Of a stretch of DNA of 29,953 bases, positions 3,569 through 25,780 are shown in pieces. A program made the position numbers and the translations under genes. The notes under the pieces were generated by a model. It had not been told where the DNA came from, did no database searches, and saw only the letters and a list, made by a program, of their open reading frames with translations. The number at the start of each line of letters is the position of its first letter. Within the stretch, counting starts at the first letter, position 1. The DNA comes from an uncultured Bdellovibrionales bacterium. Lineage in GTDB: Bacteria > Patescibacteriota > Minisyncoccia > Moranbacterales > UBA1568. The stretch spans positions 3,828 to 33,780 of the forward strand of contig CAZHDL010000001.1 of assembly GCA_964531045.1 (NCBI GenBank). The letters are read 5' to 3'.

Positions 3569-4051
3569 ATGGAAGTCTTAGCAAAACTGGGTGTTGATGG
3601 GAAACTTCTTTTGGCGCAGGCCATAAACTTCGCGGTGCTCTTTTGGGTACTGCGTCGTTTTGCGTATCAGCCGATGCTTGATTTTCTTGAGAAGCGTACG
3701 GAGCGGATAGAAAAAGGTCTGCAGGATGCCGAGGCAGCAACGGCGAAATTGGGTGAGATGGAGGCCAAAGAAAAAGCCCTGTTGTCTGAAGCTCGAACGG
3801 AAGCCAAAAATATCATTGTTGCAGCAGAAGTTGCCGCCAAAAAGCGTGATGCTGAGCATATGCTTCTGACCGAAGCGAGAGTGCAGAAGCTTCTCGAAGA
3901 GGCACAAGCGAAGATAGCAGAAGAAAAAGACCGGGCTCTGACCGAAGCCAAGAGTGAGATTGGGGAGCTTGTGGTCTTGTCGGTAGAAAAGATTCTTCGG
4001 GAAAAAATTGATGTAGTAAAGGATAAAGAATTACTCGAGAAGCTGAGGTAA
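3569..4051 (+). CDS. atpF: F0F1 ATP synthase subunit b
   Basis: AQAINFAVLFWVLRRFAYQP, LEKRTERIEKGL, long charged helix; ATG at 3569 preferred over TTG at 3563. Confidence 0.95.
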   Translation: MEVLAKLGVDGKLLLAQAINFAVLFWVLRRFAYQPMLDFLEKRTERIEKGLQDAEAATAKLGEMEAKEKALLSEARTEAKNIIVAAEVAAKKRDAEHMLLTEARVQKLLEEAQAKIAEEKDRALTEAKSEIGELVVLSVEKILREKIDVVKDKELLEKLR

Positions 4052-6001: not shown

Positions 6002-6110
6002 ATTTCTAATTTTCAATTTCTAATTTCTAAACAATTTCCAATGTCACAATTTCAAAATTAAGAAATTAAAGCATTGTTTGAAAATTGAGAATTAAAAATT
6101 GAAAATTCAT
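6001..6110. repeat. AT-rich 7-nt-periodic imperfect hairpin (atpA-atpG spacer)
   Basis: Left arm AATTTCTAATTTTCAATTTCTAATTTCTAAACAAT matches the reverse complement of right arm ATTGTTTGAAAATTGAGAATTAAAAATTGAAAATT at about 28/35 positions by my manual alignment. Confidence 0.85.
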
Positions 6111-6115
6111 TTGTT

Positions 6116-7039
6116 ATGGCTTCAGCACGAGACATTAGACGGCGCATCAAGGGAGTGAAAGGCACGGGTAAGATTACTCGGGCCATGGAGATGATTTCGG
6201 CTGTCAAAATGCGGAAGGCTGTACAGCGTGTGCTTGCTATTCGTCCCTATGCCGAGAATGCCATCAGGCTTTTGGAACAACTGAAAAGAGCAGTAGGAGA
6301 CGAAGAGCAGCATGTTCTCTTGACGAATCGCCCGGTCAAGCGGGAGTTGTACGTTGTCATCACGAGCAATCGCGGATTGTGTGGAGCCTTCAATGCTCAG
6401 ATCGTGAAGCGTTTGCGTCAGACGTTGAAAGATGATGCCGAGAGAGAACGGGTTTTTGTCACTGTCGGAAAAAAAGGAGAGAATGCCGTGCGGCGGATGC
6501 TTGCTACTCCCGGGAAGTGGGGAGGCATCATCGCTTCTTTTCCTGATGTGCTCACGACGCCGACTGCGGAAGGTATGCGAGCGCTTGCCAAGTTGATTAT
6601 CGAAGAATTTGAAACGGGTCGAGTGGATCGGGTGGTTATGGTGTATACCGACTATGTATCGATGCTCTCTCAGGAAGTGAAAGTGCGAGCACTCTTGCCG
6701 GTCGCTCTCAAGGATACCAGGAAGGCTATGCACGAGATGAGTGGGCACCCTTCGACAGGTTCGGGGTCTTTTGCGGTGAAAGAGTATGTGATCGAACCGA
6801 CGCCCAAGAAAGTGTTGTGGCAGATGATTCCTCGTTTGCTTGAGATGGAGCTCTACCATGCCGTCCTCGAAAGTAACGCCTCACAGGAGTCCGCCCGGAT
6901 GATGGCCATGCGCAATGCTACCGATGCGGCCAAAGATATGGTGTCGGACTTGACCTTGGCCTACAATCAGTTGCGCCAGGGCAAGATTACCCAGGAGATT
7001 GCTGAATTGTCAGCGGGCATGGCAGCAGTGCAAAAGTAG
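6116..7039 (+). CDS. atpG: F0F1 ATP synthase subunit gamma
   Basis: KITRAMEMISAVKM, ITSNRGLCGAFN, ARMMAMRNATD, RQGKITQEIAE. Confidence 0.98.
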   Translation: MASARDIRRRIKGVKGTGKITRAMEMISAVKMRKAVQRVLAIRPYAENAIRLLEQLKRAVGDEEQHVLLTNRPVKRELYVVITSNRGLCGAFNAQIVKRLRQTLKDDAERERVFVTVGKKGENAVRRMLATPGKWGGIIASFPDVLTTPTAEGMRALAKLIIEEFETGRVDRVVMVYTDYVSMLSQEVKVRALLPVALKDTRKAMHEMSGHPSTGSGSFAVKEYVIEPTPKKVLWQMIPRLLEMELYHAVLESNASQESARMMAMRNATDAAKDMVSDLTLAYNQLRQGKITQEIAELSAGMAAVQK

Positions 7040-7042
7040 AAT

Positions 7043-7099
7043 GTGGAATTTAGAATCTGGAATATTGGAAAAACCAAAATTTTAGATTCTAAATTCTAC
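7043..7099. repeat. 7-nt-periodic inverted repeat after atpG
   Basis: GTGGAATTTAGAATCT (7043-7058) vs AGATTCTAAATTCTAC (7084-7099): 15/16 complementary. Confidence 0.85.
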
Positions 7100-7122
7100 A
7101 CTCGAATTTAGAAAGTTGTTTG

Positions 7123-7155
7123 GAAAAAAAAGAGCCTCGGCGCAGTGCGACGAGG
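7123..7155 (-). terminator. Intrinsic terminator of the antisense cassette in the atp operon
   Basis: Minus strand CCTCGTCGCACTGCGCCGAGGCTCTTTTTTTT; related to the terminators at 13715, 14204 and 14706. Confidence 0.8.
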
Positions 7156-7176
7156 TTGGGTGGGTTCTTTTTGATA

Positions 7177-7389
7177 TCAGGAATCTTGTGGCGGTCCCAT
7201 CAGGATGATGATGCCAAGGACAACGATGGTAATACCAGCGACATCCAAAAGCGCATATTGAAATGGAGTGAGCTTTTTCTCCAGTAAGAAGATGGCAACC
7301 ATCCCTAGTACAACGAGTGCGATACCAAGCGAGAACCGGAGCAGCAGACTTTGGCTCAGGTGAGTACTCCAGCGGGAGAGACGATTCAT
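7177..7389 (-). CDS. Small two-TM membrane protein (70 aa), antisense within the atp operon
   Basis: MNRLSRW...FSLGIALVVLGMVAIF...VAGITIVVLGIIILMGPPQDS; own promoter and terminator; ATG at 7389 chosen because it lies downstream of the promoter. Confidence 0.72.
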   Translation of the reverse strand: MNRLSRWSTHLSQSLLLRFSLGIALVVLGMVAIFLLEKKLTPFQYALLDVAGITIVVLGIIILMGPPQDS

Positions 7390-7455
7390 GTTTGAGGAGT
7401 TTCTCTGAAAAATTCGTGCTCGTTGGCACTGATAGTGAAAGAACAGCGGGTATCC

Positions 7456-7484
7456 AGAGTAACAACAAAACGAGGAAGCGTCAA
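7456..7484 (-). promoter_or_regulatory. Sigma70-type promoter of the antisense cassette
   Basis: Minus strand TTGACG, 17 bp, TACTCT; followed by boxA-like CTGTTCTTTCACTA and a GTGC...GCAC hairpin (7416-7429). Confidence 0.65.
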
Positions 7485-7550: not shown

Positions 7551-8960
<1,410 letters not shown>

Positions 8961-8962
8961 AG

Positions 8963-9075
8963 AAATTTTCAGTTTTCAATTTACAATTTTCAATCAATGA
9001 ACCAATGTTTCAATAACGCATTTGGAAAATTGAGGAATTGAAAATTCAATGAAAATTGATCATTGGTAATTGAAC
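8963..9075. repeat. AT-rich 7-nt-periodic imperfect inverted repeat (atpD-atpC spacer)
   Basis: TTTTCAA/TTTACAA units on the left, TTGAAAA units on the right; ACCAATG/CATTGGT pair. Confidence 0.75.
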
Positions 9076-9078
9076 ATC

Positions 9079-10714: not shown

Positions 10715-13621
10715 ATGATCATGAAAAAGACCTACGATCCGAAGAAAATTGAGGGGAAGTGGCAGAAGGTCTGGGCCAAAGAGGGTATACCAAAAAAGAC
10801 CGGTACCAAAGGCAAAGGGAAATTCTATATTCTCGATATGTTTCCCTATCCATCGGGTGATGGTCTTCATGTGGGACACGTCGAGAATTTTACCGCCACG
10901 GATATCCTGGCTCGGTTCAAGCGATTTCAAGGGCACGACGTACTCCGGCCGATGGGGTGGGATGCCTTTGGCCTGCCGGCAGAGAATTTTGCTATCAAAA
11001 CCGGGATTCATCCCAAGATAAAAACGCTCCAATCTATCAAAAATTTCAAGCGGCAGATGCAGTCCATTGGGCTTTCGTATGATTGGAGTCGTGAGATCAA
11101 TACCTCGAGCCCAGAGTACTATCGCTTTACGCAGTGGATGTTTCTCTTTTTGTATAAAAATGGTCTGGCCTACAAGAAGAAGGCCAAAGTGAACTGGTGC
11201 GAATCCTGTCATACGGTACTTGCCAATGAGCAGGTGATTGATGGCAAGTGTGATCGCTCCGGCGACATCGTGATCCAAAAAGATCTGGAGCAGTGGTTTT
11301 TCAAAATTACTGATTTTGTCGAACCTACGACATCGCCAACAGGAAAAAAAGTGTCCGGGTTATTGTCCGGTCTCGACAAGATTGATTGGCCGGAATCCAC
11401 GAAGGCCGCGCAGCGGCACTGGATTGGTCGCTCCGAGGGGACAGAAGTCGTGTTCTATGTGGTTGATACAGAGGAAGAGGTGCGAGTATTTACGACGCGT
11501 CTCGATACTATCTATGGTTGCACCTATGTGGTCATCGCACCAGAACATAGCTTGATTGCAGATTTGAAATTGCAGATTGAAAATTGGATAGAAGTAGAAA
11601 AATATATTGCGACCACAAAGAAAAAGACTGATCTCGAGCGGACGGAGCTGAACAAGGACAAGACGGGTGTGTGTCTGCAGGGGATTGAAGTGGTGCATCC
11701 GTTTACGGGAGAACGTCTGCCGGTCTATGTCGCGGACTATGTTCTCGGAACCTATGGCACCGGGGCAGTCATGGGTGTGCCGGCGCATGATGAGCGCGAC
11801 TTTGCTTTTGCCAAGAAATATGAACTTCCCATGCTGCATACCATTGCTCCCTATATTGAAATGGGTGGAGCATGTACGCCAAGAAAGGATAAGAAAACTG
11901 CTTCTCGTGATTGTGCTACAGCTATCGTGTTGGACGAATCTGGTAAACGGATTTTGCTTTTGCGCCGCAAGAAAGGCGGTACGTATGTTTTTCCGGGTGG
12001 TGGTATTGAAGAGGGAGAAACCTCCGAAGAAGCTATTTTTCGAGAGATTAAAGAAGAGACTGGTTATCAAAATTTTACCTTGGAAGCATTGGCTATCCCG
12101 GTGCTATACGGACGAGGCTTTAAACCACATAAGGATGTGAATTGTTTTGATAGTGATAGAATCTTTGTGGCTCAGTTGATTAATCAGGAAAAGTTAGAGA
12201 TCGCTCAAGATGAGCATGAAACACACGAAATTTTCTGGGAGGAGACGTCGAAATTAGTAGGAAAACCTGATTTGGCTGAGCATCACGAATTTATTTGGAA
12301 GGTTTTTTCTGAGAAAGAAAAAGTATATACGGAAGATGGGATTTTGTATGATTCGAAAGAATTCTCAGGGTTGACGTCGAAAGAAGCTCGAGAAAAAATG
12401 ACGGCGTGGCTCCGGAAAGAAAAACTTGGCAAGAAAGTGGTGAACTACCGTCTGCGCGATTGGCTTATCTCGCGTCAGCGGTACTGGGGCGCGCCCATTC
12501 CGATTATCTCCTGTGACAGCTGTGGTACTGTACCGGTGACGGAGAAGGATCTCCCTGTGAAACTGCCAACGGATGTAGACTTTCGTCCGACCGGAGAGTC
12601 GCCACTCGTCCGTTCCAAGAGTTTCCATAAAGTGAAGTGTCCACAGTGCGGCAAGAAAGCCAGGCGTGAGAGTGACACCATGGACACGTTTGTCTGTTCG
12701 AGCTGGTACTATCTGCGTTTTGCTGATCCTCACAATGAAAAGGTGTTTGCCTCGAAAAAGGCTTTGGAAAAATACCTCCCGGTTGATTTCTATATGGGTG
12801 GTGCCGAACACACGGTACTGCACCTGCTCTATGCGCGCTTTTTTACCAAGGCACTCATGAAGTATGGGCAAGTGGAGTTCGACGAGCCGTTTCAAAAACT
12901 GCGTCACCAGGGGATGATTTTGGCGCCGGATGGCAACAAGATGTCGAAGTCCAAAGGGAATGTCATCAATCCTGATCAGATGGTCGCCGAATTTGGAGCG
13001 GACAGTCTCCGTCTCTATGAGATGTTTATGGGGCCACTGGATGAAATGAAGGCCTGGAATACGGGCAGTATTATCGGGGTACGACGGTTCTTGGAGAAGG
13101 TATGGAAATTGGAGTCAAAAGTGAAAAGTGAAAAGTTAAAAGGACAAATCAAAAGTGATACTTTGGAAAGTCTCGTGCATCGGACGATAAAGAAAGTGAC
13201 AGAGGATATTGAAGAATTGAAATTCAATACGGCTATCAGTGCTCTCATGATTCTCGTGAACGAGATGGAAAAGGCCCCTTCACTACCAGCTGCCAGCTAC
13301 CAGCTGCTCTTGATCCTTCTCAGTCCATTCGCTCCACATATCGCCGAAGAACTGTGGGCGCAGTCGGGAGAAAAGAAGTCTATTTTTCTTGCGCCATGGC
13401 CGAAATATGATGCCAAGAAAATCGTGGCTGAAACAGTGAATGTGGCGGTGCAGGTGAATGGCAAAGTGCGTGCTGTTATTGCTATACAGAGTGGCACGAG
13501 CGAAGAGGATGTAAAGACTCAGGCGCTTGCCGATACCAATGTTAAACTTCATCTTGCCGACAAAACCGTCCGCAAGGTTATCTACGTGCCTGGAAAAATC
13601 GTCAGTATCGTGGTGGGTTGA
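10715..13621 (+). CDS. leuS: Leucine--tRNA ligase with an inserted Nudix hydrolase domain
   Basis: MFPYPSG, HVGH (HIGH), CP1 editing region (FTTRLDT, GTGAVMGVPAHDERD), DWLISRQRYWG, KMSKS, C-terminal AVQVNGK. Nudix box GGGIEEGETSEEAIFREIKEETG at about 11996-12064. Confidence 0.98.
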   Translation: MIMKKTYDPKKIEGKWQKVWAKEGIPKKTGTKGKGKFYILDMFPYPSGDGLHVGHVENFTATDILARFKRFQGHDVLRPMGWDAFGLPAENFAIKTGIHPKIKTLQSIKNFKRQMQSIGLSYDWSREINTSSPEYYRFTQWMFLFLYKNGLAYKKKAKVNWCESCHTVLANEQVIDGKCDRSGDIVIQKDLEQWFFKITDFVEPTTSPTGKKVSGLLSGLDKIDWPESTKAAQRHWIGRSEGTEVVFYVVDTEEEVRVFTTRLDTIYGCTYVVIAPEHSLIADLKLQIENWIEVEKYIATTKKKTDLERTELNKDKTGVCLQGIEVVHPFTGERLPVYVADYVLGTYGTGAVMGVPAHDERDFAFAKKYELPMLHTIAPYIEMGGACTPRKDKKTASRDCATAIVLDESGKRILLLRRKKGGTYVFPGGGIEEGETSEEAIFREIKEETGYQNFTLEALAIPVLYGRGFKPHKDVNCFDSDRIFVAQLINQEKLEIAQDEHETHEIFWEETSKLVGKPDLAEHHEFIWKVFSEKEKVYTEDGILYDSKEFSGLTSKEAREKMTAWLRKEKLGKKVVNYRLRDWLISRQRYWGAPIPIISCDSCGTVPVTEKDLPVKLPTDVDFRPTGESPLVRSKSFHKVKCPQCGKKARRESDTMDTFVCSSWYYLRFADPHNEKVFASKKALEKYLPVDFYMGGAEHTVLHLLYARFFTKALMKYGQVEFDEPFQKLRHQGMILAPDGNKMSKSKGNVINPDQMVAEFGADSLRLYEMFMGPLDEMKAWNTGSIIGVRRFLEKVWKLESKVKSEKLKGQIKSDTLESLVHRTIKKVTEDIEELKFNTAISALMILVNEMEKAPSLPAASYQLLLILLSPFAPHIAEELWAQSGEKKSIFLAPWPKYDAKKIVAETVNVAVQVNGKVRAVIAIQSGTSEEDVKTQALADTNVKLHLADKTVRKVIYVPGKIVSIVVG

Positions 13622-13640
13622 AAGAAGATCATACAGGGTT

Positions 13641-13699
13641 AAAAGTTGAAAGTTATAAAGTTGAAAGTTTATAAAGTGGAAGGTTGAAAGTAGGAAAGT
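13641..13699. repeat. Left 7-nt-periodic arm flanking the cassette array
   Basis: GAAAGTT-type units; 13641-13661 AAAAGTTGAAAGTTATAAAGT is the exact reverse complement of 15466-15486. Confidence 0.85.
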
Positions 13700-13714
13700 C
13701 CTTAGATTCAGGAT

Positions 13715-13747
13715 AAAGAAAAAGCCCCGGCGCAGTTGTGCGCAGGG
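13715..13747 (-). terminator. Terminator of cassette C
   Basis: Minus strand CCCTGCGCACAACTGCGCCGGGGCTTTTTCTTT. Confidence 0.8.
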
Positions 13748-13775
13748 ACAAGAGTTATCGATGAGGTGTTCGTCT

Positions 13776-14114
13776 CTAGAGAGAGGGCGGGATGCTCACT
13801 CGGTGGATGAAACAGAGGTAGAAGGTCGTGGCCACGAAGGTGGTGAAGCCCACCTCGAATTGATGATCAGTGATCCACCCATCTGGTCGGCACTCAGAGA
13901 CCGCATCGGTCATCAAGAGGACACAGAGACTGGCACAGCCACCGAGCAGGCCAGTCACCATGAGCTTGGTCACGCCAATCCCGAGCAGATGCGCGAGAGG
14001 CGCTTGAGCACCCAATTCATGGAAGCCGACAGCAAGGATCATGAGAAGTGTCATCGTGGCAAAACTGCAGAACGATGGTTCGTTGCTGTTGCGAGCGAGA
14101 GATTGGCTGGTCAT
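13776..14114 (-). CDS. Small hydrophobic membrane protein (112 aa, about 3 TM), cassette C
   Basis: GGAG RBS before ATG 14114 (MTSQSLARN...); three hydrophobic stretches; own promoter and terminator. Confidence 0.65.
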   Translation of the reverse strand: MTSQSLARNSNEPSFCSFATMTLLMILAVGFHELGAQAPLAHLLGIGVTKLMVTGLLGGCASLCVLLMTDAVSECRPDGWITDHQFEVGFTTFVATTFYLCFIHRVSIPPSL

Positions 14115-14174
14115 GGCAGGCTCCAGGGTAAGTGTGCCATTGGGCACGGGTTTGGTAAGGCACTGTAACGAAAA

Positions 14175-14203
14175 ATGATAGCGCCTCTCTGTATAAAAGT
14201 CAA
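14175..14203 (-). promoter_or_regulatory. Promoter of cassette C
   Basis: Minus strand TTGACT, 17 bp, TATCAT. Confidence 0.75.
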
Positions 14204-14231
14204 GAAAAAAGCCCCGGCGTTGCGCGGGGCG
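14195..14231. repeat. 37-bp exact direct repeat, copy 1 (terminator fused to the next -35)
   Basis: AAAAGTCAAGAAAAAAGCCCCGGCGTTGCGCGGGGCG, identical to 14697-14733. Confidence 0.95.
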
Positions 14232-14241
14232 GGGTCTCGAC

Positions 14242-14382
14242 CTACCTCTTGGGGAGGCGCGAGGCGAGGAGGAGTCCTCCGATGACGACGAGGACCAGTC
14301 CCAAGATAAGTACTCCGGTGTCCGAAGTTTTGAGAATGGCCAGGCCTATCGAGGCAATGAAAAACCCCAGAGTGATTCTCAT
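14242..14382 (-). CDS. Small two-TM protein (46 aa), cassette B gene 2
   Basis: MRITLGFFIASIGLAIL...ILGLVLVVIGGLLLASRLPKR; ATGA start/stop overlap with the upstream gene at 14379-14382. Confidence 0.68.
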   Translation of the reverse strand: MRITLGFFIASIGLAILKTSDTGVLILGLVLVVIGGLLLASRLPKR

Positions 14383-14630
14383 AGGCAGCGTTTTCGTTTT
14401 GCTCGGTGAAAAAGGACAACGCCGGCAAGAGTCACCGCCAGTCCGACCAGGGTACCGAAGCCGTTGATGGCCAGGATGGGAGATGTCCCTGCGAGGGCAA
14501 TCATCTTGAGGCCAAGCAGGCTGACGGCAATCCCAAGAGCGAGGGAAAGGCACAGCCTTAGGGTGGTTAGGATGGTGAGAAGCATCCTTTTGATCTGACA
14601 CCGGCAGTGTACCGGCCGACCGCTAGACAT
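14379..14630 (-). CDS. Small two-TM protein (83 aa), cassette B gene 1
   Basis: GAAGGG RBS before ATG 14630 (MSSGR...LALGIAVSLLGL...VGLAVTLAGVVLFHRAKRKRCL). Confidence 0.68.
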   Translation of the reverse strand: MSSGRPVHCRCQIKRMLLTILTTLRLCLSLALGIAVSLLGLKMIALAGTSPILAINGFGTLVGLAVTLAGVVLFHRAKRKRCL

Positions 14631-14676
14631 GGTGGTTCCCTTCGTGTTGAATTGACAAAGATCTTGGTAACGCGGA

Positions 14677-14705
14677 ATGGTAGCGTCTCTTGGTGCAAAA
14701 GTCAA
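14677..14705 (-). promoter_or_regulatory. Promoter of cassette B
   Basis: Minus strand TTGACT, 17 bp, TACCAT; boxA-like GATCTTTGTCAAT follows (14651-14663). Confidence 0.72.
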
Positions 14706-14733
14706 GAAAAAAGCCCCGGCGTTGCGCGGGGCG
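14697..14733. repeat. 37-bp exact direct repeat, copy 2 (terminator fused to the next -35)
   Basis: Identical to 14195-14231, 502 bp apart. Confidence 0.95.
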
Positions 14734-14757
14734 AGGGTTGAGGTCGGCCAACTTGAG

Positions 14758-14949
14758 TCAGTGGCCGTGGAAGCCCCTGAAGAAGAGTTTGGCTCCGCCC
14801 CAGATGAGCACGATACCAGCGACAACACCGGTGATATTCCAGGGAAAGTCAGGAATCAGTGCGAAGAGGGCAGTGGCAAGACCAGAAAACCAGATTAGTC
14901 CGCCAATGTACATGTATGCGGCATAGCGCGCAGCAGTTCCGTTGTTCAT
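14758..14949 (-). CDS. Small two-TM protein (63 aa), cassette A gene 2
   Basis: AAGGAG RBS; MNNGTAARY...IGGLIWFSGLATALF...VAGIVLIWGGAKLFF. Confidence 0.75.
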   Translation of the reverse strand: MNNGTAARYAAYMYIGGLIWFSGLATALFALIPDFPWNITGVVAGIVLIWGGAKLFFRGFHGH

Positions 14950-14979
14950 GTTGACTCCTTGCTCTGAAGAGCGTTGGGT

Positions 14980-15195
14980 TTAGGGCTTCTTGGGGAAGGC
15001 GTAGGCAATGAGGGCGCTGCCGGCTACCATCACAACCAGACCAAGAATGACGAACAGGTCCTGGCCAAGCGTGTCGGTACTCGTTGGTTGAGCAATCTTT
15101 ATCAGGATCGCCAAGCGACTGATATTGCCAGTTATGGTCACCGAGAGGCCAACGGAAAAAAGCATCAATCCGAAGGCAAACTTATTGCGGTTCAT
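14980..15195 (-). CDS. Small two-TM protein (71 aa), cassette A gene 1
   Basis: GAAAGG RBS; MNRNKFAFGLMLFSVGLSV...ILGLVVMVAGSALIAYAFPKKP. Confidence 0.75.
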   Translation of the reverse strand: MNRNKFAFGLMLFSVGLSVTITGNISRLAILIKIAQPTSTDTLGQDLFVILGLVVMVAGSALIAYAFPKKP

Positions 15196-15258
15196 GAAGA
15201 ACCTTTCGTGGTTGGTGTGCCAGTGGCACGGGATTGGTAAGGCAACTTGTAACCGTCC

Positions 15259-15287
15259 ATTATAGCAGAAAATACAGAAAAAGTCAA
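15259..15287 (-). promoter_or_regulatory. Promoter of cassette A (near consensus)
   Basis: Minus strand TTGACT, 17 bp, TATAAT. Confidence 0.85.
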
Positions 15288-15415
15288 TACCGCACCATTT
15301 CTGGCTCTATCTGGGTACATCTGTGTGCTGAAGAGTATTTGCCTCCGGCTTTCGTCTGCGGAATATCGCAATCTCTACTTGAAAAGGGTACGGGACAGGC
15401 GAGATGAATAAACAG

Positions 15416-15424
15416 TGCTAGAAT
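15416..15424 (+). promoter_or_regulatory. Extended -10 element upstream of glmS
   Basis: TGCTAGAAT about 105 nt upstream of the glmS ATG. Confidence 0.45.
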
Positions 15425-15455
15425 AGAGGTATCGGTCTAATTCAAAATTCGATAT

Positions 15456-15524
15456 TCAACTTTCCACTTTATAACTTTCAACTTTTCACTTGTTACTTTT
15501 AACTTTCCACATTTTTAACTTTCA
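15456..15524. repeat. Right 7-nt-periodic arm flanking the cassette array
   Basis: AACTTTC-type units; 15466-15486 is a perfect 21-bp inverted copy of 13641-13661. Confidence 0.85.
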
Positions 15525-15529
15525 CCCCT

Positions 15530-17398
15530 ATGTGTGGCATCGTTGGCTATATCGGCAGACGTGAGGCAAATGATCTGCTCATCGAAGGGCTTCATCGGCT
15601 GGAGTATCGGGGGTACGATTCGGCTGGGATTTCCATTCTTCACTCTGGAGAGAATCTAAAATCTAAAATCAAAAATCTAAAATCAAAGAATCATCTTGTG
15701 ACGGTACGGGCTCTTGGAAAAGTTGAGAATCTTGAAAAAAAGGTGGGAGAAAAAATGAAAGGGTCTGTGGGCATCGCTCATACTCGGTGGGCCACCCATG
15801 GCAAGCCGTCGGAGAAGAATGCTCATCCGCATACGGACTGTGCCGGTCAAATCGCACTCGTTCACAACGGTATTATCGAAAACTATAACGAGCTGAAGGA
15901 GGATCTCGTGAAACAGGGGCATCTCTTTGCGTCTGAGACGGATACGGAGGTAATCGCTCATCTGATCGAAGAACATTTGAAAGAGAAGGATGATTTTGAG
16001 GCGGCATTTACGGAGGCGCTCAAGCACCTGCGTGGGACGTACGGGATTGCAGCGGTGGCACTCTCTCAACCGAACAAACTCTTTGTGGCTCGGATGGGGA
16101 GTCCGCTTTTGATCGGAGTAGGGAAGGATGAGTATTTTGTCGCGTCCGATGTTTCTGCTGTACTCGCTCATACGAAACGCGTCGTGTATTTGGAAGATGG
16201 TGAACGAGCCGTCATCACTCGCGATGGCTATGTGGTCAAGTCCGGTAAGATCATTCAGAAAAAAACAGTTTCGGATGTGGAGTGGTCAGAAAAAGAAGCC
16301 AAGCGCGGTGGGTACCCACACTTCATGCTCAAGGAAATTTTTGATCAACCAGAGAGCTTTGCTGATGCTTTGCGGGGCCGATTGCTTCCGGATGAGGGTA
16401 CAGCTCGACTTGGCGGTTTGCGTGAAGTGGAGAAGCGTTTGGAGGGTATACGACGCATTGTGATTGTGTCGTGTGGTACGTCGTCGTATGCCGGCCTGGT
16501 GGGGAAGTACATGCTCGAAGAATATGCCGGGATTCCGGTCGAGGTCGAGGTGGCTTCAGAGTTTCGTTATCGTAAAATGATGCTCGATAAATACACGGCC
16601 GTGCTCGGTATTTCTCAGTCGGGTGAAACGGCTGATACACTGGCGGCACTGCGTGAGGCGAAAAAGAAAGGAGCGCTCACACTTGGTATTGTGAACACGG
16701 TCGGTTCGACTATCGCACGGGAGACCGATGCCGGAGTGTACAACCATGCCGGGCCGGAAGTGTCGGTGGCCTCGACAAAGGCGTTTACCTCGCAATTGGC
16801 CATTCTCGCTCTCCTCACCCTCTATCTGGGACGGAAGCGTGGGATGTCGCTCGTCACGGGACAGCGTATAGCGCGTGAGCTTTTGAAACTGCCACGACTG
16901 ATGGAGCGAATCTTTGTGCAATCGGGGACGATAAAAAAGCTGGCCAAGAAGTATGCTCATCGGAAAAACTACCTCTATCTGGGACGCAAGTACAATTTTC
17001 CTATCGCCCTTGAGGGGGCTATCAAGGTGAAAGAGATTGCCTATGTGTCAGCACAGGGGTATCCGACGGGCGAAATGAAGCACGGGCCAATTGCTCTGGT
17101 GGATAAGGATGCCTTGGCGCTCTTCATCATGCCGCTTGATAGCGTGTATGAAAAAAGTGTTAGTGGCCTTGAGGAAATCAAAGCCCGAGGAGGAACGGTG
17201 CTCGCCATTACCACCGAGGGGAACACGGCGCTTGAAAAAAAGGCGGATGCAGTGGTGTATATCCCGAAGACGCTCGAAATGCTGACACCGATACTGTCCG
17301 TCATTCCGCTCCAGCTCTTTGCGTACCATATGAGCGTAGCTCTGGGCTATGACGTGGATAGGCCACGGAACCTGGCGAAAAGTGTGACGGTGGAGTAG
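15530..17398 (+). CDS. glmS: Glutamine--fructose-6-phosphate aminotransferase (isomerizing)
   Basis: MCGIVG, LEYRGYDSAG, HTRWATHG, VHNGIIEN, SETDTEV, SQSGETADT, GEMKHGP, PRNLAKSVTVE. Confidence 0.99.
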   Translation: MCGIVGYIGRREANDLLIEGLHRLEYRGYDSAGISILHSGENLKSKIKNLKSKNHLVTVRALGKVENLEKKVGEKMKGSVGIAHTRWATHGKPSEKNAHPHTDCAGQIALVHNGIIENYNELKEDLVKQGHLFASETDTEVIAHLIEEHLKEKDDFEAAFTEALKHLRGTYGIAAVALSQPNKLFVARMGSPLLIGVGKDEYFVASDVSAVLAHTKRVVYLEDGERAVITRDGYVVKSGKIIQKKTVSDVEWSEKEAKRGGYPHFMLKEIFDQPESFADALRGRLLPDEGTARLGGLREVEKRLEGIRRIVIVSCGTSSYAGLVGKYMLEEYAGIPVEVEVASEFRYRKMMLDKYTAVLGISQSGETADTLAALREAKKKGALTLGIVNTVGSTIARETDAGVYNHAGPEVSVASTKAFTSQLAILALLTLYLGRKRGMSLVTGQRIARELLKLPRLMERIFVQSGTIKKLAKKYAHRKNYLYLGRKYNFPIALEGAIKVKEIAYVSAQGYPTGEMKHGPIALVDKDALALFIMPLDSVYEKSVSGLEEIKARGGTVLAITTEGNTALEKKADAVVYIPKTLEMLTPILSVIPLQLFAYHMSVALGYDVDRPRNLAKSVTVE

Positions 17399-19650: not shown

Positions 19651-19687
19651 GTAAGCAAAAAACAGCTGATTAAAGCTGTTTTATGTG

Positions 19688-19770
19688 TGCCGAGGGAGGG
19701 ACTTGAACCCTCATGATATTGCTATCGCGGGATTTTGAGTCCCGTGTGTCTACCATTCCACCACCTCGGC
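19688..19770 (-). tRNA. tRNA-Leu(CAA)
   Basis: Minus strand GCCGAGGTGGTGGAATGGTAGACAC-ACGGGA-CTCAAAA-TCCCGC...GAGGG-TTCAAGT-CCCTC-CCTCGGC-A; long variable arm; CCA not encoded. Confidence 0.95.
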
Positions 19771-20751: not shown

Positions 20752-20872
20752 AATAATTTCCAATTTACAAATCCCAATTTACAATAAATTTAACAATGAC
20801 TAAATTTTCAATTGTGAAACTGAAACATTGGAATATTGATTGAAAATTGAAAACTGATAATTGAAAATTACA
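20752..20872. repeat. AT-rich 7-nt-periodic imperfect inverted repeat (parA-parB spacer)
   Basis: CAATTTA/AATTTTC units on the left; ATTGAAA units on the right. Confidence 0.75.
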
Positions 20873-20877
20873 AACAT

Positions 20878-21834: not shown

Positions 21835-21881
21835 CTCTCGAATTTTCAATTTTCAAACACCAATTTTCATTGAATGTTTCA

Positions 21882-22247
21882 ATGATACAATCCAACAAAC
21901 AAAAAGAATACGATCTTGAGGAGAGAACAGCGAAGTTCGGTGAGTCAATTGTTTCTTTTTGTAAGGATGTGAAGCGTGATACCGTTGCGGCACCGCTCAT
22001 CAATCAACTCATTCGTTCTGGTACCAGTGTCGGCGCTAACTACTGCGAAGCAAATAATGCGTCTTCAAAAAAGGATTTCCGAAACAAGATATTTATTTCC
22101 AAAAAAGAGGCCCAGGAGACCAAATACTGGCTTCGAATGATGGCTCAAGCGGTACCGGATAAAAAAGACAAACTAAAGGTTTTATGGAAAGAATGTCAGG
22201 AACTCACGATGATTTTTCAGAAAATTTGTTCTTCATTGGATAAATGA
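21882..22247 (+). CDS. Four-helix-bundle protein (23S rRNA intervening-sequence protein / Avd-like family)
   Basis: DLEERTAKF, QLIRSGTSVGANYCEA, SKKDFRNKIFISKKEAQETKYWL; flanked by 7-mer arms at 21836-21880 and 22245-22340. Confidence 0.9.
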   Translation: MIQSNKQKEYDLEERTAKFGESIVSFCKDVKRDTVAAPLINQLIRSGTSVGANYCEANNASSKKDFRNKIFISKKEAQETKYWLRMMAQAVPDKKDKLKVLWKECQELTMIFQKICSSLDK

Positions 22248-22345
22248 AAATTGAAATATTGGAAATTTATTGTAAATTGTAAATTGATGCTTGGAAATGG
22301 AGTTGTGTTTTTAAGCAAAGATTAGAAATTGAAAATTGTTTTATC

Positions 22346-25300
22346 ATGTCTTACGAAGTAACCAAGTCTCGGATCTTTCAATGGATAGGCATTATCCTCA
22401 TCATAGGGGTGTTTGCTGGTGCGTACTGGTACTTTCAGGTGTTTGCCGGGTATAAGACCAACGTCTCATCGACGGGGTCGCTTACGAGTGGACTGGTGGG
22501 GTATTGGACGTTTGACGGTGCGGATGTCAGTGGTACCACAGCCACTGACCGTTCTGGGAGTGGCGACAATGGCACGCTTGTGAACGGCCCGACGGTAGTT
22601 CAAGGGAAAGTTGGTCAGGCGCTGAATTTTGATGGAGTAGATGATAAGGTCACTACGGGTTCTATTATTACCAATGATATTTTCACCTATTCAGCTTGGA
22701 TTAAATGGGCTACGGGAGGGTTAACAATTATAGGGAGTTCAGCTGATTCTGCAATACAATTCCGGGTAAATTTGATGAAAATTGAATTGCTCAACTCTGG
22801 CGCTTTAAGTGTTGGCACTTCAACCGGAACAATAACTGCCGGGGTGTGGACACACGTAGCAGTAACTAATGATGCTTCCGGCAACTTTACATTTTATATT
22901 AACGGCGTTAATGCTGGGGGGAGCGGAACAAACCTTCTAAACTATGGTAATAATCCGATCACAATAGGTTCACGGAATGGTTCCGCTGAATTTTTCAATG
23001 GTGCTATCGACGAAGTGCGTATCTATAACCGTGCCCTTGCTGCTACCGAAATCCAGTCTCTCTATGCTACGGGGCAGAGTGATGAAGTGAACACGGGGGC
23101 CTCGCAGGCGCAGGGAGGAGGGCGACTGGACAGTGGCCTTGCCGGCTACTGGAAGCTGGATGATGGTGCCGGTACCAGTGCCACGGATAGTAGTACAAAC
23201 GGCAATACCGGAACGCTGACCAATGGTCCCACCTGGACCACGGGACAGATCGGGGGAGCGGTTTCGTATGACGGAATTAATGATTACATTACTACCGGTG
23301 CTACTATTCCTAGCAAGGGCACCGTATCAGTCTGGGTAAATCCGAATTTTTCATTGGATCCATCAGCACTGTATGATATTTTTAATTCTGGGTCAGATGG
23401 AAATTTGTTACGCTTGCGATTAAACACTTTTGCAACGTTCGATACGTTTCAATTAACGGTTCGTGGAAATTTCGGAACATATATCGAAGTTCAAGGTCCA
23501 ACCTACACGAGTGATACTCAGATTCAGGGGTGGCACCATATCGTGGCTACCTGGGATACTGCACTCGGTGCGAATCTCTATGTTGATGGAGCACTCATTG
23601 GATCAAGCAGTACTGCTTCAAATAATTTTACTACGACAACATTGAACATGGGTGGGACTTTGGATTATTGGAAGGGATCTCTCGATGAAGCACGCTTGTA
23701 TGACCGAGTCCTTTCTGCCGATGAAGTCTCTCAGCTCTCTCGTTTGAATACTCCTAGCAGTGTCGATACGGGCCTCAAGGGCTACTGGAGTTTCAACGGG
23801 AAGAGCGTAAGCGGTACGACAGTGTATGACCGGAGTGGTGCTGGCAACACTGGGACGCTCACCAATGGCCCGACCGTCACCCCGGGAAAAATCGGCCAAG
23901 CGTTGAATTTCGATGGCACAAATGATTATGTGAGCGTGGCATCAGCCACTTCCATCCACCCAGCGTTACCATTCTCGTTTTCATTTTGGGTAAAGCCTAC
24001 AACTGTATCAAGTGCTCAGGGAATTTTTGGATCACGCGAAGCGGTTCAGCACGATGGGTACTGGTCGAGTATCGGTTCCGACGGATCGGTAACAATAAAT
24101 TATGGTGATGGTGCGGGTTGTGATCCAGCCGACCGGAGAACAAAAACGAGCCCTGCCTCGACACTTGTTGCGGGGCAGTGGCAACATGTCACTGGTATTA
24201 TCAGTGGCGCTACTGATATGAGTATTTATGTGAATGGTGTTGATGTCGGAGGTACATATTCTGGGACGGGTGGCAGTATTAGCTATGGGTCCTTATCTAT
24301 TCTCAGATTAGGAAGCGTTGGAGGGAGCGGAGGCTGTCCTGCTGCATACTTCAATGGTTCCATGGATGAAGTCCGTTTGTATAATCGTGCCTTGTCGACC
24401 ACTGAAATCCAAGCGCAGTATGCCGCGGCTCAGAGTGATGAAGTAAATACGGGAGCCTCTCAGGCACAGGGAGGAGGACGATTGGACAGTGGCTTGGCTG
24501 GCTACTGGAAGCTTGATGATGGGAGTGGTACCAGCGCTACTGACAGCAGTACCAATGGGAGCGCAGGAACACTCACCAATGGCCCGAACTGGACCACGGG
24601 ACAGATTGGGGGGGCGGTTGATTTGGATGGGACGGATGATTATGTGGATGTTGGTCTTTCTGCTATCAGCTCGCCAAATGCCTTGACACTCTCTGTTTGG
24701 GCGAAGTTTGGTTCAAATAGGGATGCCGTGGGACATCCTCTTTTCGGTAATGTGAATGGACAGAGCGGCTCGGGTGGACAAGCGTTTTATGTTGACAACG
24801 CTGGAACATATAATATTGGTGGTTTTGCCGGGGTTTCCGCACTTTCAACAAATACGATTACTCCATCGCTTGATACCTGGTATCATTTGGTAGATACATT
24901 TGATGGTGTGACGGAAAAAATTTATGTGAACGGGGCATTGATTGCTAGTGGTGCTGGCAGTACGACACAGGCATCAGAAAATAATGTGATGCTTGGGAGA
25001 CATGTTGGTTCATCCGGATCGACCTACCTTGATGGCACAGTAGACGAAGCTCGTGTCTATAAAAGAGCTCTTTCAAGTGATGAAGTCTCGCAGCTCTACC
25101 GACTAGCGACACCCACCGGTACGGATACTGATTTGAAAGGCTACTGGAGTTTTAATGGCAAAGATGTGAGTGGTACCACAGCCTCTGATCGCTCTGGTGC
25201 GGGAAACAATGGTACCTTGACCAATGGTCCGGCGGTTACTCCCGGGAAGATTGGTCAGGCTCTTTTGTTTGATGGAGTTGATGATTACGTCACTATCGGT

Positions 25301-25780
25301 GATCCGGCCAGTCTTCGTTTTGGTGCGGAATCGTTCTCGGTATCGACCTGGTTTAAAACAACCGCAACGAGTTTTGGATATATGCTTGGTGACTACGCGG
25401 TTAACCCTACCATCATTGGTCTGGGAGTGAATAATACTGGACACTCTGGCAAGGCGATGTTTTTTTTGAGGGATACCGCGGTCAGTCAGACTTTGGATAT
25501 TTACTCGACAACCAACGTCAACGATGGTCAGTGGCACCATGCCGTTGGTGTGCGTAATAGCTCAACGAATCGGATGAAACTGTATGTGGATGGTGTCGAA
25601 GAAGCATCCGGGGTCTATTCTGGAGCGGTCTTATTTACGACAAACAACAGCTGGTCCTTCGGTCGGGCTGGATCTCAACCAGTCTCAGGATATTTCTCAG
25701 GAGCAGTTGATGAAACCCGTGTGTATAAACGAGCACTGACACAGGAGGAGATTAGCTCGCTCTATAATGCGGGAAAGTAG
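22346..25780 (+). CDS. Membrane-anchored surface protein with five LamG/concanavalin-A-like jellyroll domains (1144 aa)
   Basis: N-terminal TM; five repeats of GYW..D...GTL.NGP...G..G.A..FDG..DY...W.H......Y.NG...F.G..DE.R.Y.RAL. Confidence 0.9.
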   Translation: MSYEVTKSRIFQWIGIILIIGVFAGAYWYFQVFAGYKTNVSSTGSLTSGLVGYWTFDGADVSGTTATDRSGSGDNGTLVNGPTVVQGKVGQALNFDGVDDKVTTGSIITNDIFTYSAWIKWATGGLTIIGSSADSAIQFRVNLMKIELLNSGALSVGTSTGTITAGVWTHVAVTNDASGNFTFYINGVNAGGSGTNLLNYGNNPITIGSRNGSAEFFNGAIDEVRIYNRALAATEIQSLYATGQSDEVNTGASQAQGGGRLDSGLAGYWKLDDGAGTSATDSSTNGNTGTLTNGPTWTTGQIGGAVSYDGINDYITTGATIPSKGTVSVWVNPNFSLDPSALYDIFNSGSDGNLLRLRLNTFATFDTFQLTVRGNFGTYIEVQGPTYTSDTQIQGWHHIVATWDTALGANLYVDGALIGSSSTASNNFTTTTLNMGGTLDYWKGSLDEARLYDRVLSADEVSQLSRLNTPSSVDTGLKGYWSFNGKSVSGTTVYDRSGAGNTGTLTNGPTVTPGKIGQALNFDGTNDYVSVASATSIHPALPFSFSFWVKPTTVSSAQGIFGSREAVQHDGYWSSIGSDGSVTINYGDGAGCDPADRRTKTSPASTLVAGQWQHVTGIISGATDMSIYVNGVDVGGTYSGTGGSISYGSLSILRLGSVGGSGGCPAAYFNGSMDEVRLYNRALSTTEIQAQYAAAQSDEVNTGASQAQGGGRLDSGLAGYWKLDDGSGTSATDSSTNGSAGTLTNGPNWTTGQIGGAVDLDGTDDYVDVGLSAISSPNALTLSVWAKFGSNRDAVGHPLFGNVNGQSGSGGQAFYVDNAGTYNIGGFAGVSALSTNTITPSLDTWYHLVDTFDGVTEKIYVNGALIASGAGSTTQASENNVMLGRHVGSSGSTYLDGTVDEARVYKRALSSDEVSQLYRLATPTGTDTDLKGYWSFNGKDVSGTTASDRSGAGNNGTLTNGPAVTPGKIGQALLFDGVDDYVTIGDPASLRFGAESFSVSTWFKTTATSFGYMLGDYAVNPTIIGLGVNNTGHSGKAMFFLRDTAVSQTLDIYSTTNVNDGQWHHAVGVRNSSTNRMKLYVDGVEEASGVYSGAVLFTTNNSWSFGRAGSQPVSGYFSGAVDETRVYKRALTQEEISSLYNAGK

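Follow-up and report, generated by a model that had tools for sequence, protein, structure and literature searches.

In Mycoplasma, the vsp, vlp, and vsa loci consist of clustered single-gene units that have near-identical 5' regions and divergent coding regions; these loci occur in small genomes and are sites of frequent recombination and of variation between strains. The toxins of type I toxin-antitoxin (TA) systems usually have one helix. They are typically shorter than 60 amino acids (PMC11264685), and a boxA near a start codon can repress translation via Nus factors (PMC5725501). Here we describe an array of three small units between leuS and glmS in the genome of an uncultured bacterium, in which like promoter and terminator ends enclose unlike genes for small hydrophobic proteins. 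The array lies in a stretch of 29,953 nucleotides (nt), referred to as the window, which corresponds to positions 3828–33780 of contig C1 of the source genome, G000 (assembly of 1.07 Mb in 128 contigs, 93% complete, GC content 0.481); other G numbers denote congeners, L numbers contigs, and C numbers contigs of G000. We favor, as fairly probable, the explanation that this is a lineage-specific, fast-evolving small-membrane-protein locus whose shell was duplicated in tandem and whose cargo was reshuffled by ordinary recombination.

Organization of the array

The array comprises the following features, all on the minus strand (ORF, open reading frame; SD, Shine-Dalgarno).

14706–15287: unit A, with promoter, leader, A1, A2, and terminator
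15287–15282 (-35), 15264–15259 (-10), and 15253–15249 (GTTAC): promoter of unit A
15217–15242: core of the unit A leader, with the boxA-like CCTTACCAA at 15242–15234 and the hairpin GTGCC-ACU-GGCAC at 15229–15217
14980–15195: A1, 71 amino acids, a two-helix membrane hairpin of the MNRxxLAxG...AFPKKP family
14955–14972: inter-ORF hairpin GCTCTTCAGAGC plus SD AAGGAG, kept across species whichever ORF follows
14758–14949: A2, 63 amino acids, two transmembrane (TM) helices
14696–14732: junction of A and B, a 37-mer made up of the stem (14732–14713), a T-run, and the -35 of unit B
14204–14705: unit B, with promoter, a differing leader without the boxA/hairpin motif, B1, B2, and terminator
14379–14630: B1, 83 amino acids
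14242–14382: B2, 46 amino acids, with an ATGA overlap with B1
14194–14230: junction of B and C, the identical 37-mer, made up of the terminator and the -35 of unit C
13718–14203: unit C, with promoter, A-type leader (boxA-like motif and hairpin), C1, and terminator (13747–13719)
13776–14114: C1, 112 amino acids

An earlier note on this DNA had described three head-to-tail minus-strand units, each with a TTGACT-17-TAnnAT promoter, GTTAC after the -10, and a GC-rich terminator, and an identical 37-mer at both internal junctions; all of this was confirmed. The -35 boxes are located at 15287 (A), 14705 (B), and 14203 (C), and the promoters read TTGACT-17-TATAAT, TTGACT-17-TACCAT, and TTGACT-17-TATCAT, respectively, with GTTAC 5–6 nt past each -10. 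The terminator stems of A (14732–14713) and B (14230–14211) have the sequence GCCCCGCGCAACGCCGGGGC followed by six T, and that of C (13747–13724) has CCCTGCGCACAACTGCGCCGGGGC followed by five T. Predicted folding energies are -17.9 kcal/mol (z -3.25) for the terminator of C and -16.2 kcal/mol (z -1.2) for that of A.

Both junctions fall within a 70-nt repeat of 86% identity that contains the exact 37-mer. The similarity of the three units at the DNA level is confined to their ends, except that A and C additionally share the leader. The leader of B differs from these two and is without the motif that they have in common. The 36-nt core of the junction has just two occurrences in the genome, and the full pattern of promoter and GTTAC has four, three of them in the array. 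The array also stands out in composition, with a GC content of 0.545 versus 0.481 genome-wide and a GC content at third codon positions (GC3) of 0.61–0.70 versus 0.52 ± 0.07.

The leuS-glmS site in relatives

The interval between leuS and glmS is not invariant: compared between strains and relatives, it varies in unit number, order, and cargo. The gap is 22–123 bp in six congeners, other congeners have co-directional nucleotidyl-transferase and HAD-like genes in it, and a third group has one to three opposite-strand small-gene units. Orthologues of unit A occur in G069, G009, G021, and metagenome contigs. The occupied sites found in relatives are as follows, with brackets enclosing one unit and S denoting a family that includes soluble proteins.

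G069: A2-like ORF, then A1-like ORF (the G000 order reversed); contig ends inside the terminator
G009: [A1-like ORF and soluble S1] [S2, a paralogue of S1]
L029: [short A1 and S1]
L083 and L085: [A1 and S-family ORF]
L082: [A1 only]
L087: [A1 and another two-TM ORF]
G072 (also L024): [A2-like ORF only]
G021: [short A1 and 81-amino acid TM ORF]
G011: [one 70-amino acid TM ORF]

Across these loci, changes of ORF fall exactly at start and stop codons. In G009 and metagenome contigs, for example, A1 and an unrelated soluble ORF are joined at the conserved inter-ORF hairpin and SD. What is kept is the promoter, the leader, the GCTCTYCRGAGC hairpin with AAGGAG downstream of A1, a C-rich 3' untranslated region (3'UTR; CCAACCCC), and the terminator (...GCGCACAACCGCGCCGGGGC-T6). 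A search for the terminator pattern in all species genomes and in metagenomes recovered orthologous loci only, besides chance matches in GC-rich genomes, and the 37-mer had no occurrence outside the array.

In a tree of GlmS, a single subclade of 12 species contains every genome with the array, mixed with genomes whose site is empty. Parsimony on this tree yields five changes of occupancy, and well-supported branches make at least three of these unavoidable. The patchy occupancy, together with the differing cargo, indicates that the cargo turns over and that the site has been repeatedly filled or emptied.

A contig from a near-identical strain, L092, is a mosaic with respect to the window.

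15957–15529: glmS coding sequence, 97.7% identity
15528–15295: glmS 5'UTR, unalignable (replaced)
15294–15188: promoter and leader of the unit, 80% identity
15187–15023: most of A1 (short-loop allele P0019), unalignable
15022–14779: conserved C-terminus of A1 through A2, 98.8% identity

The right-hand breakpoint lies inside the conserved C-terminus of A1. This mosaic pattern is that expected if an allele was imported, one crossover lying in the conserved end of A1. The idea of constant ends with variable cargo, put forward in the earlier note, is thus borne out by L092 and by the reordered and swapped ORFs of relatives, at the leuS-glmS site only.

A short element with inverted ends, TGTCATCCCG...CGGGATCCAG, was also seen in or beside the leuS-glmS intergenic region of several relatives (L014:4627–4980 from G021, where the copy encloses a small ORF; L029:60–95; and L051 from G019, upstream of glmS). 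It looks like a miniature mobile element.

Proteins encoded by the array

All five ORFs are hydrophobic, have at least two predicted helices, and have the coding pattern GC3 > GC1 > GC2. None scored above the thresholds of Pfam, PHROG, or PADLOC. To this extent the description of the five as small, hydrophobic, and not recognizable stood, but A1 belongs to a small conserved family. A profile built from five A1 sequences retrieved 14 representatives from 1.84 billion protein representatives. Family members are 54–92 amino acids in length and have conserved MNRxxLAxG and AFPKKP ends, two glycine-bearing helices, and a loop of one of two kinds, short or ~16 residues longer. Wherever flanking genes were recovered, the context is always glmS<-|A1->...|<-leuS; two ~0.5-kb contigs contain A1 without flanking genes. 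By conservation and context, A1 is a real conserved gene family bound to the glmS-leuS site.

The AlphaFold model of A1 is a helical hairpin (predicted local distance difference test score 88) with helices at residues 3–31 and 39–66. The MNR...AFPKKP ends are predicted to be cytoplasmic and the outer loop to be the variable part. A Foldseek search of this model against AlphaFold Database clusters returned generic helical hairpins only (E ≥ 0.1), the ESM Atlas returned unnamed archaeal clusters at 0.89, under the reliable range, and a scan of genome contigs with A1 returned none. A word-based protein search returned nothing for A1, B1, or C1.

A2 has homologues in G069, where it is the first ORF of the unit, and in G072, where it is the sole ORF; in L092 the first 57 residues are identical, after which the contig ends. 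For B1, neither the 49 congeners nor the large protein database yielded a homologue. The protein database likewise yielded none for C1, for which the 49 congeners gave just two marginal matches (E 0.002 and 0.009) and no credible homologue. An exact look-up of C1 and B2 in assemblies gave no record. B2 has a weak hydrophobic match to the C-terminus of A1. A single divergent family comprising all five ORFs was considered and is unproven; the supported families are A1, A2, and S only.

Leader, promoter, and translation signals

The leader of unit A has a predicted folding energy of -16.5 kcal/mol (z -3.2). Alignment of 10 leaders identified an invariant CCTTA and a 6-bp hairpin, GTGCC(N2-12)GGCAC, with one compensatory and two wobble changes and a loop of variable length. 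The variable loop length and the pair changes fit an RNA hairpin and not a DNA operator. A covariance model of the leader matched in only 6 of the 50 congeners' genomes: G000 (units A and C, and a solo unit on C53), G009 (twice), G011, G021, G069, and G072. The copy on C53 is the only A1-type leader outside the leuS-glmS site. The earlier expectation that the 37-mer and the leader would recur elsewhere therefore failed for the 37-mer, which is confined to the array, and largely for the leader, which is confined to six species with this one off-site copy.

The leader motif CCTTA(A/C)CAA corresponds to the boxA position in ribosomal RNA (rRNA) leaders of the lineage, where boxA reads CCTTAACAAT (G000:C34 and G025), ATTTAACAAT (G023), or ACTTAACAAT (G026), with (C/A/T)(C/T)TTAACAAT as the pattern common to all four. 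It matches 8–9 of the 11 positions of the boxA consensus GYTCTTTAANA, which is gamma-proteobacterial (PMC5725501), and is located <50 nt from the start codon. G000 encodes NusB; at a completeness of 93%, it yielded no Rho RNA-binding domain. Judging from the motif and its position, the leader is probably under boxA/Nus-type control, affecting elongation or translation. The rRNA-operon leader of G000, with boxA CCTTAACAATTGAG, is located at the end of a contig (C34:11161), and the rRNA itself, including 16S, is unassembled. Elsewhere in G000 (C4:24874 and C62:1024), two further small membrane ORFs have C(C/T)TTAACAAC immediately before the SD.

Clear SD sites occur at four of the five array ORFs and in the orthologous units, and those of B1 and C1 have proper spacing. 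Among 664 long ORFs of G000, SD-like motifs occur at 8.9%, versus 8.6% at random positions, and the 16S rRNA of congeners keeps its CCUCC tail, ending CACCTCCTTTCT. In G000, SD sites occur in the small-gene units and at genes driven by the special promoter class described below. The SD sites and the raised GC and GC3 together suggest that the array genes either are expressed as a class of their own or have a history that is in part foreign.

The promoter is more widespread than the leader. The sequence TTGACTTTT occurs at ~25 sites in G000, mostly with a consensus -10 downstream, and a near-invariant 39-nt promoter (TTGACTTTT-N6-TTTTMTGCTATAAT-RGAMN-GTTAC) is present in one to three copies in 18 of the 50 genus genomes, with no match in any of the 50 for the reversed pattern used as a control. 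In genomes without A1, this promoter drives proteins of 300–400 amino acids, including SPFH-like ones, and the leaders of these operons have a hairpin, then CCTT(T/A)ACAA and an SD. It is a genus-wide generic class of promoter and not specific to the cassettes. The combination of the 39-nt promoter, a variable hairpin, CCTT(T/A)ACAA, and an SD was seen in L098–L104, L106, and L109, the genomes concerned being G023, G035, G066, G018, G010, G033, G019, G031, and G070; SPFH-like products occur in G035 and G033. These loci may form a boxA-linked regulon of the genus.

The three units are not the only ones of their kind in the window. The earlier note correctly located the array and missed a fourth related unit.

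7123–7484, minus strand: solo related unit between atpG and atpD, with promoter, hairpin leader, ORF, and terminator

Its ORF (7177–7389) encodes 70 amino acids with two TM helices and is antisense to atpG/atpD. The terminator, CGCACTGCGCCGAGGCTC followed by eight T, is related to that of unit C, and the protein matches the NfeD membrane domain weakly, below the threshold (E 0.004). Further solo units of similar build are located on C53, C38, and C39 of G000. Searches for the terminator and the promoter in viral contigs gave no match, which leaves a phage origin without support.

Flanking repeats and genomic setting

The array is bracketed by two AT-rich arms.

13638–13669: leuS-side AT-rich heptamer-repeat arm, 32 nt, 94% complementary to 15458–15489
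15458–15489: glmS-side arm, in the glmS 5'UTR, downstream of the glmS -10 TGCTAGAAT at 15416–15424 (plus strand)

The AACTTTC-repeat UTR on the glmS side is also present in G002, a genome without the array. The bracketing arms of G009 and G072 are 17 nt in length and of other sequence, and G011 has none. Spacers throughout the genome contain AT-rich heptamer-repeat palindromes, which bracket ordinary genes as well. Within the window, such spacers are located at 6039–6115, 7033–7109, 8956–9077, 20756–20874, 21841–21905, and 22263–22298; each pair has its own heptamer type, and the arms are adjacent or placed around whole genes (parB; atpG to atpD). Insertion of the array into the loop of a spacer palindrome was considered and rejected as a general rule, as the leuS terminator palindrome is intact beside the units of L083 and L085; G002, with its glmS-side arm and no array, also contradicts it.

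The gene content of the window is housekeeping: TatD, the ATP synthase operon, a DUF4349 protein, leuS, and glmS, along with a DnaQ-like exonuclease, PAP2, folD, parA/parB, a 23S-IVP-type protein, a LamG-repeat protein, and a nucleotidyl transferase. A transfer RNA (tRNA) gene, tRNA-Leu at 19687–19770, is the sole match of the Rfam and tRNA scans; neither a glmS ribozyme nor any other RNA family was found in the Rfam scan. DNA of the window is contained in freshwater metagenome runs. LeuS (968 amino acids) has a NUDIX domain (E 5e-16) after its editing domain, at residues 399–519 (window 11909–12271). This insert is specific to G000 or its close kin, because LeuS of congeners is 799–813 amino acids in length. 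The gene at 22346–25780 (plus strand) encodes an 1144-amino acid protein with five concanavalin/LamG-type repeats, which is probably a surface protein.

Discussion

We envisage that a founding unit was inserted on the opposite strand between leuS and glmS, at an ancestrally tight junction. This unit would have had a strong sigma-70-type promoter, a leader with the boxA-like CCTTA(A/C)CAA and a 5–6-bp hairpin, A1 with its SD, usually a second small ORF behind the conserved hairpin and SD, a C-rich 3'UTR, and a GC-rich intrinsic terminator. Two tandem duplications of the shell, that is, terminator plus promoter, would then have given rise to three independently transcribed units with unrelated cargo. 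Gain, loss, reordering, and replacement of ORFs could have proceeded by homologous or illegitimate recombination, for which the common non-coding segments and the conserved C-terminus of A1 may have served as crossover points, with no dedicated site-specific recombination needed for the cargo to change. The boxA-like motif would probably recruit NusB/NusE and thereby modulate elongation or translation, and SD sites would set the array genes apart from long ORFs, which show no SD enrichment. The products are presumed to be membrane-inserted microproteins. The variable loop, the replacement of alleles, and the patchy distribution suggest that selection at the cell surface is diversifying, for example through contact with phage, host, or competitors, and a surface-exposed role under such selection, the weakest step of this scheme, is our leading guess. 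We entertain more tentatively, as a minor possibility, that the shell itself, from the genus-wide promoter and boxA-like leader through the inter-ORF hairpin and SD to the C-rich 3'UTR and terminator, is a vehicle of recombinase-free exchange. Homologous recombination at such shells would then swap, duplicate, and move small ORFs between strains and loci, making the locus a Nus-controlled contingency array of surface microproteins in a reduced genome that apparently lacks Rho.

The same observations could be read in other ways. That cargo differs between species and strains within constant ends, that the site is patchily occupied, that G000 has related solo units elsewhere (7123–7484, C53, C38, and C39), and that inverted repeats surround the array in G000, G009, and G072 would all fit a true cassette system, in which mobile modules with autonomous promoters are shuffled by site-specific recombination at their constant ends. 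We consider this very unlikely, and the integron-like mechanism proposed in the earlier note found no support. That note had seen no adjacent integrase, transposase, or attC, and indeed no integrase, transposase, or recombinase domain was detected by Pfam among the tested ORFs of the 30-kb window (most of those of at least 100 amino acids). The boundaries are a plain terminator, with a 6-bp GC stem and a T-run, fused to the -35 TTGACT, and they lack an attC-like imperfect palindrome with a conserved core; GTTAC misfits the integron core GTTRRRY, with a C where the core calls for R. The 37-mer is unique to the array, the leader model is limited to six congeners at this site plus the C53 unit, viral contigs gave no matches, and the promoter is generic across the genus. 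As for the bracketing repeats, they belong to the genome-wide spacer type, and the glmS-side arm occurs in G002 without an array.

Tandem units of ~490–580 bp with small hydrophobic ORFs and structured leaders also recall type I TA loci such as the ~500-bp ldrA-C of E. coli, in which case the peptides would be RNA-checked membrane toxins. Tandem duplication is typical of chromosomal type I loci (Fozo et al. 2010, PMC2887945), and boxA repression of a toxin gene is documented, but for a ParE-like toxin (PMC5725501). We regard such an identity as quite unlikely. A consensus scan of 13000–16000 identified no plus-strand promoter-like site of at least 9/12 and just two, weak, plus-strand terminator-like sites, of which 14960–14973 is the complement of the inter-ORF hairpin. 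The ORFs, at 46–112 amino acids and with at least two helices, include only one (B2) below 60 amino acids, and their SD sites are not strongly sequestered. Moreover, the equivalent shell holds soluble ORFs in some relatives, and A1 is conserved as a single-copy syntenic gene. It is unlikely, if somewhat less so, that unit A alone is functional and that B and C are decaying duplicates of its shell, their ORFs being chance frames in GC-rich sequence with T at position 2. The lack of credible homologues for B1 and C1 in 49 congeners and the large database (where B2 was not searched), the weaker -10 of B (TACCAT) and C (TATCAT) as compared with A, and the lack of the conserved motif in the B leader agree with such decay. 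Yet B1, B2, and C1 maintain GC3 > GC1 > GC2, B1 and C1 have properly spaced SD sites, B1 and B2 share an ATGA overlap typical of translational coupling, and the terminators and -35 boxes are perfectly kept. 

Several points weigh against an explanation by shell duplication and ordinary recombination. This explanation does not account for the inverted AT-rich arms that surround the array in G000, G009, and G072. Recombination is deduced from mosaic patterns, and the paralogy of the shells from a similarity of ~40–70 nt, part of which could have been kept by function; similarly, transcription and translation of the units are predicted from their signals. The GlmS gene tree may differ from the species tree. 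With no homologue detected for B1 and C1 (for B2, in family libraries), these may not be functional genes. The putative boxA is a match of 8–9 nt, and a role in translation is an alternative, given that elsewhere in the class the motif directly adjoins the SD.

The locus provides a defined family, A1, tied to a single place in the chromosome. It clearly records turnover in several forms: duplication of the shell, start- and stop-exact swaps of ORFs, allele replacement between near-identical strains, and recurrent loss and gain. The near-invariant 39-nt promoter, the boxA-like leader, and the SD sites constitute a candidate regulatory class, and should the boxA reading be true, Nus control would reach membrane microproteins in a lineage in which Rho was not found. 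The locus further suggests that constant ends with variable cargo are possible without integron-like machinery. Many small membrane proteins are unexplained in uncultured bacteria with reduced genomes.

Comparison with known systems

The array resembles integron arrays in its head-to-tail small units, repeated boundaries, unrelated cargo, and fixed chromosomal site. It differs in having no IntI, attI, or attC. Integron cassettes lack promoters, but here a promoter and a terminator come with every unit. Its boundaries are ordinary transcription signals, and its variation can be explained by homologous recombination. 

The type I TA repeats of E. coli (ldr/rdl, ibs/sib, and zor/orz) are likewise ~0.5-kb tandem repeats, each with a small hydrophobic peptide and its own promoter, structured leader, and terminator. 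Unlike these, the array lacks signals of antisense RNA genes, its peptides are longer and have two helices, and some orthologous units encode soluble proteins. With the boxA/Nus leaders of rRNA, lambda nut, and the suhB 5'UTR (PMC5725501), the array has in common a boxA-like motif beside a short hairpin and a genome that encodes NusB. It departs from them in that the hairpin loop varies in length and sequence, which excludes an N-type boxB, in that no Rho, which Nus factors usually target, was found in G000, and in that Nus binding is here a prediction.

The five ORFs have no visible lipobox or lipoprotein signal and no in-gene tandem repeats, the promoter spacers have T-runs of at most five and no homopolymer tract, and there is no invertase; in these respects, and in encoding tiny helical hairpins, the array is unlike the vsp, vlp, and vsa loci of Mycoplasma. 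What it shares with those loci is the clustering of units, constant 5' regions joined to divergent coding regions, recombination, and variation between strains.

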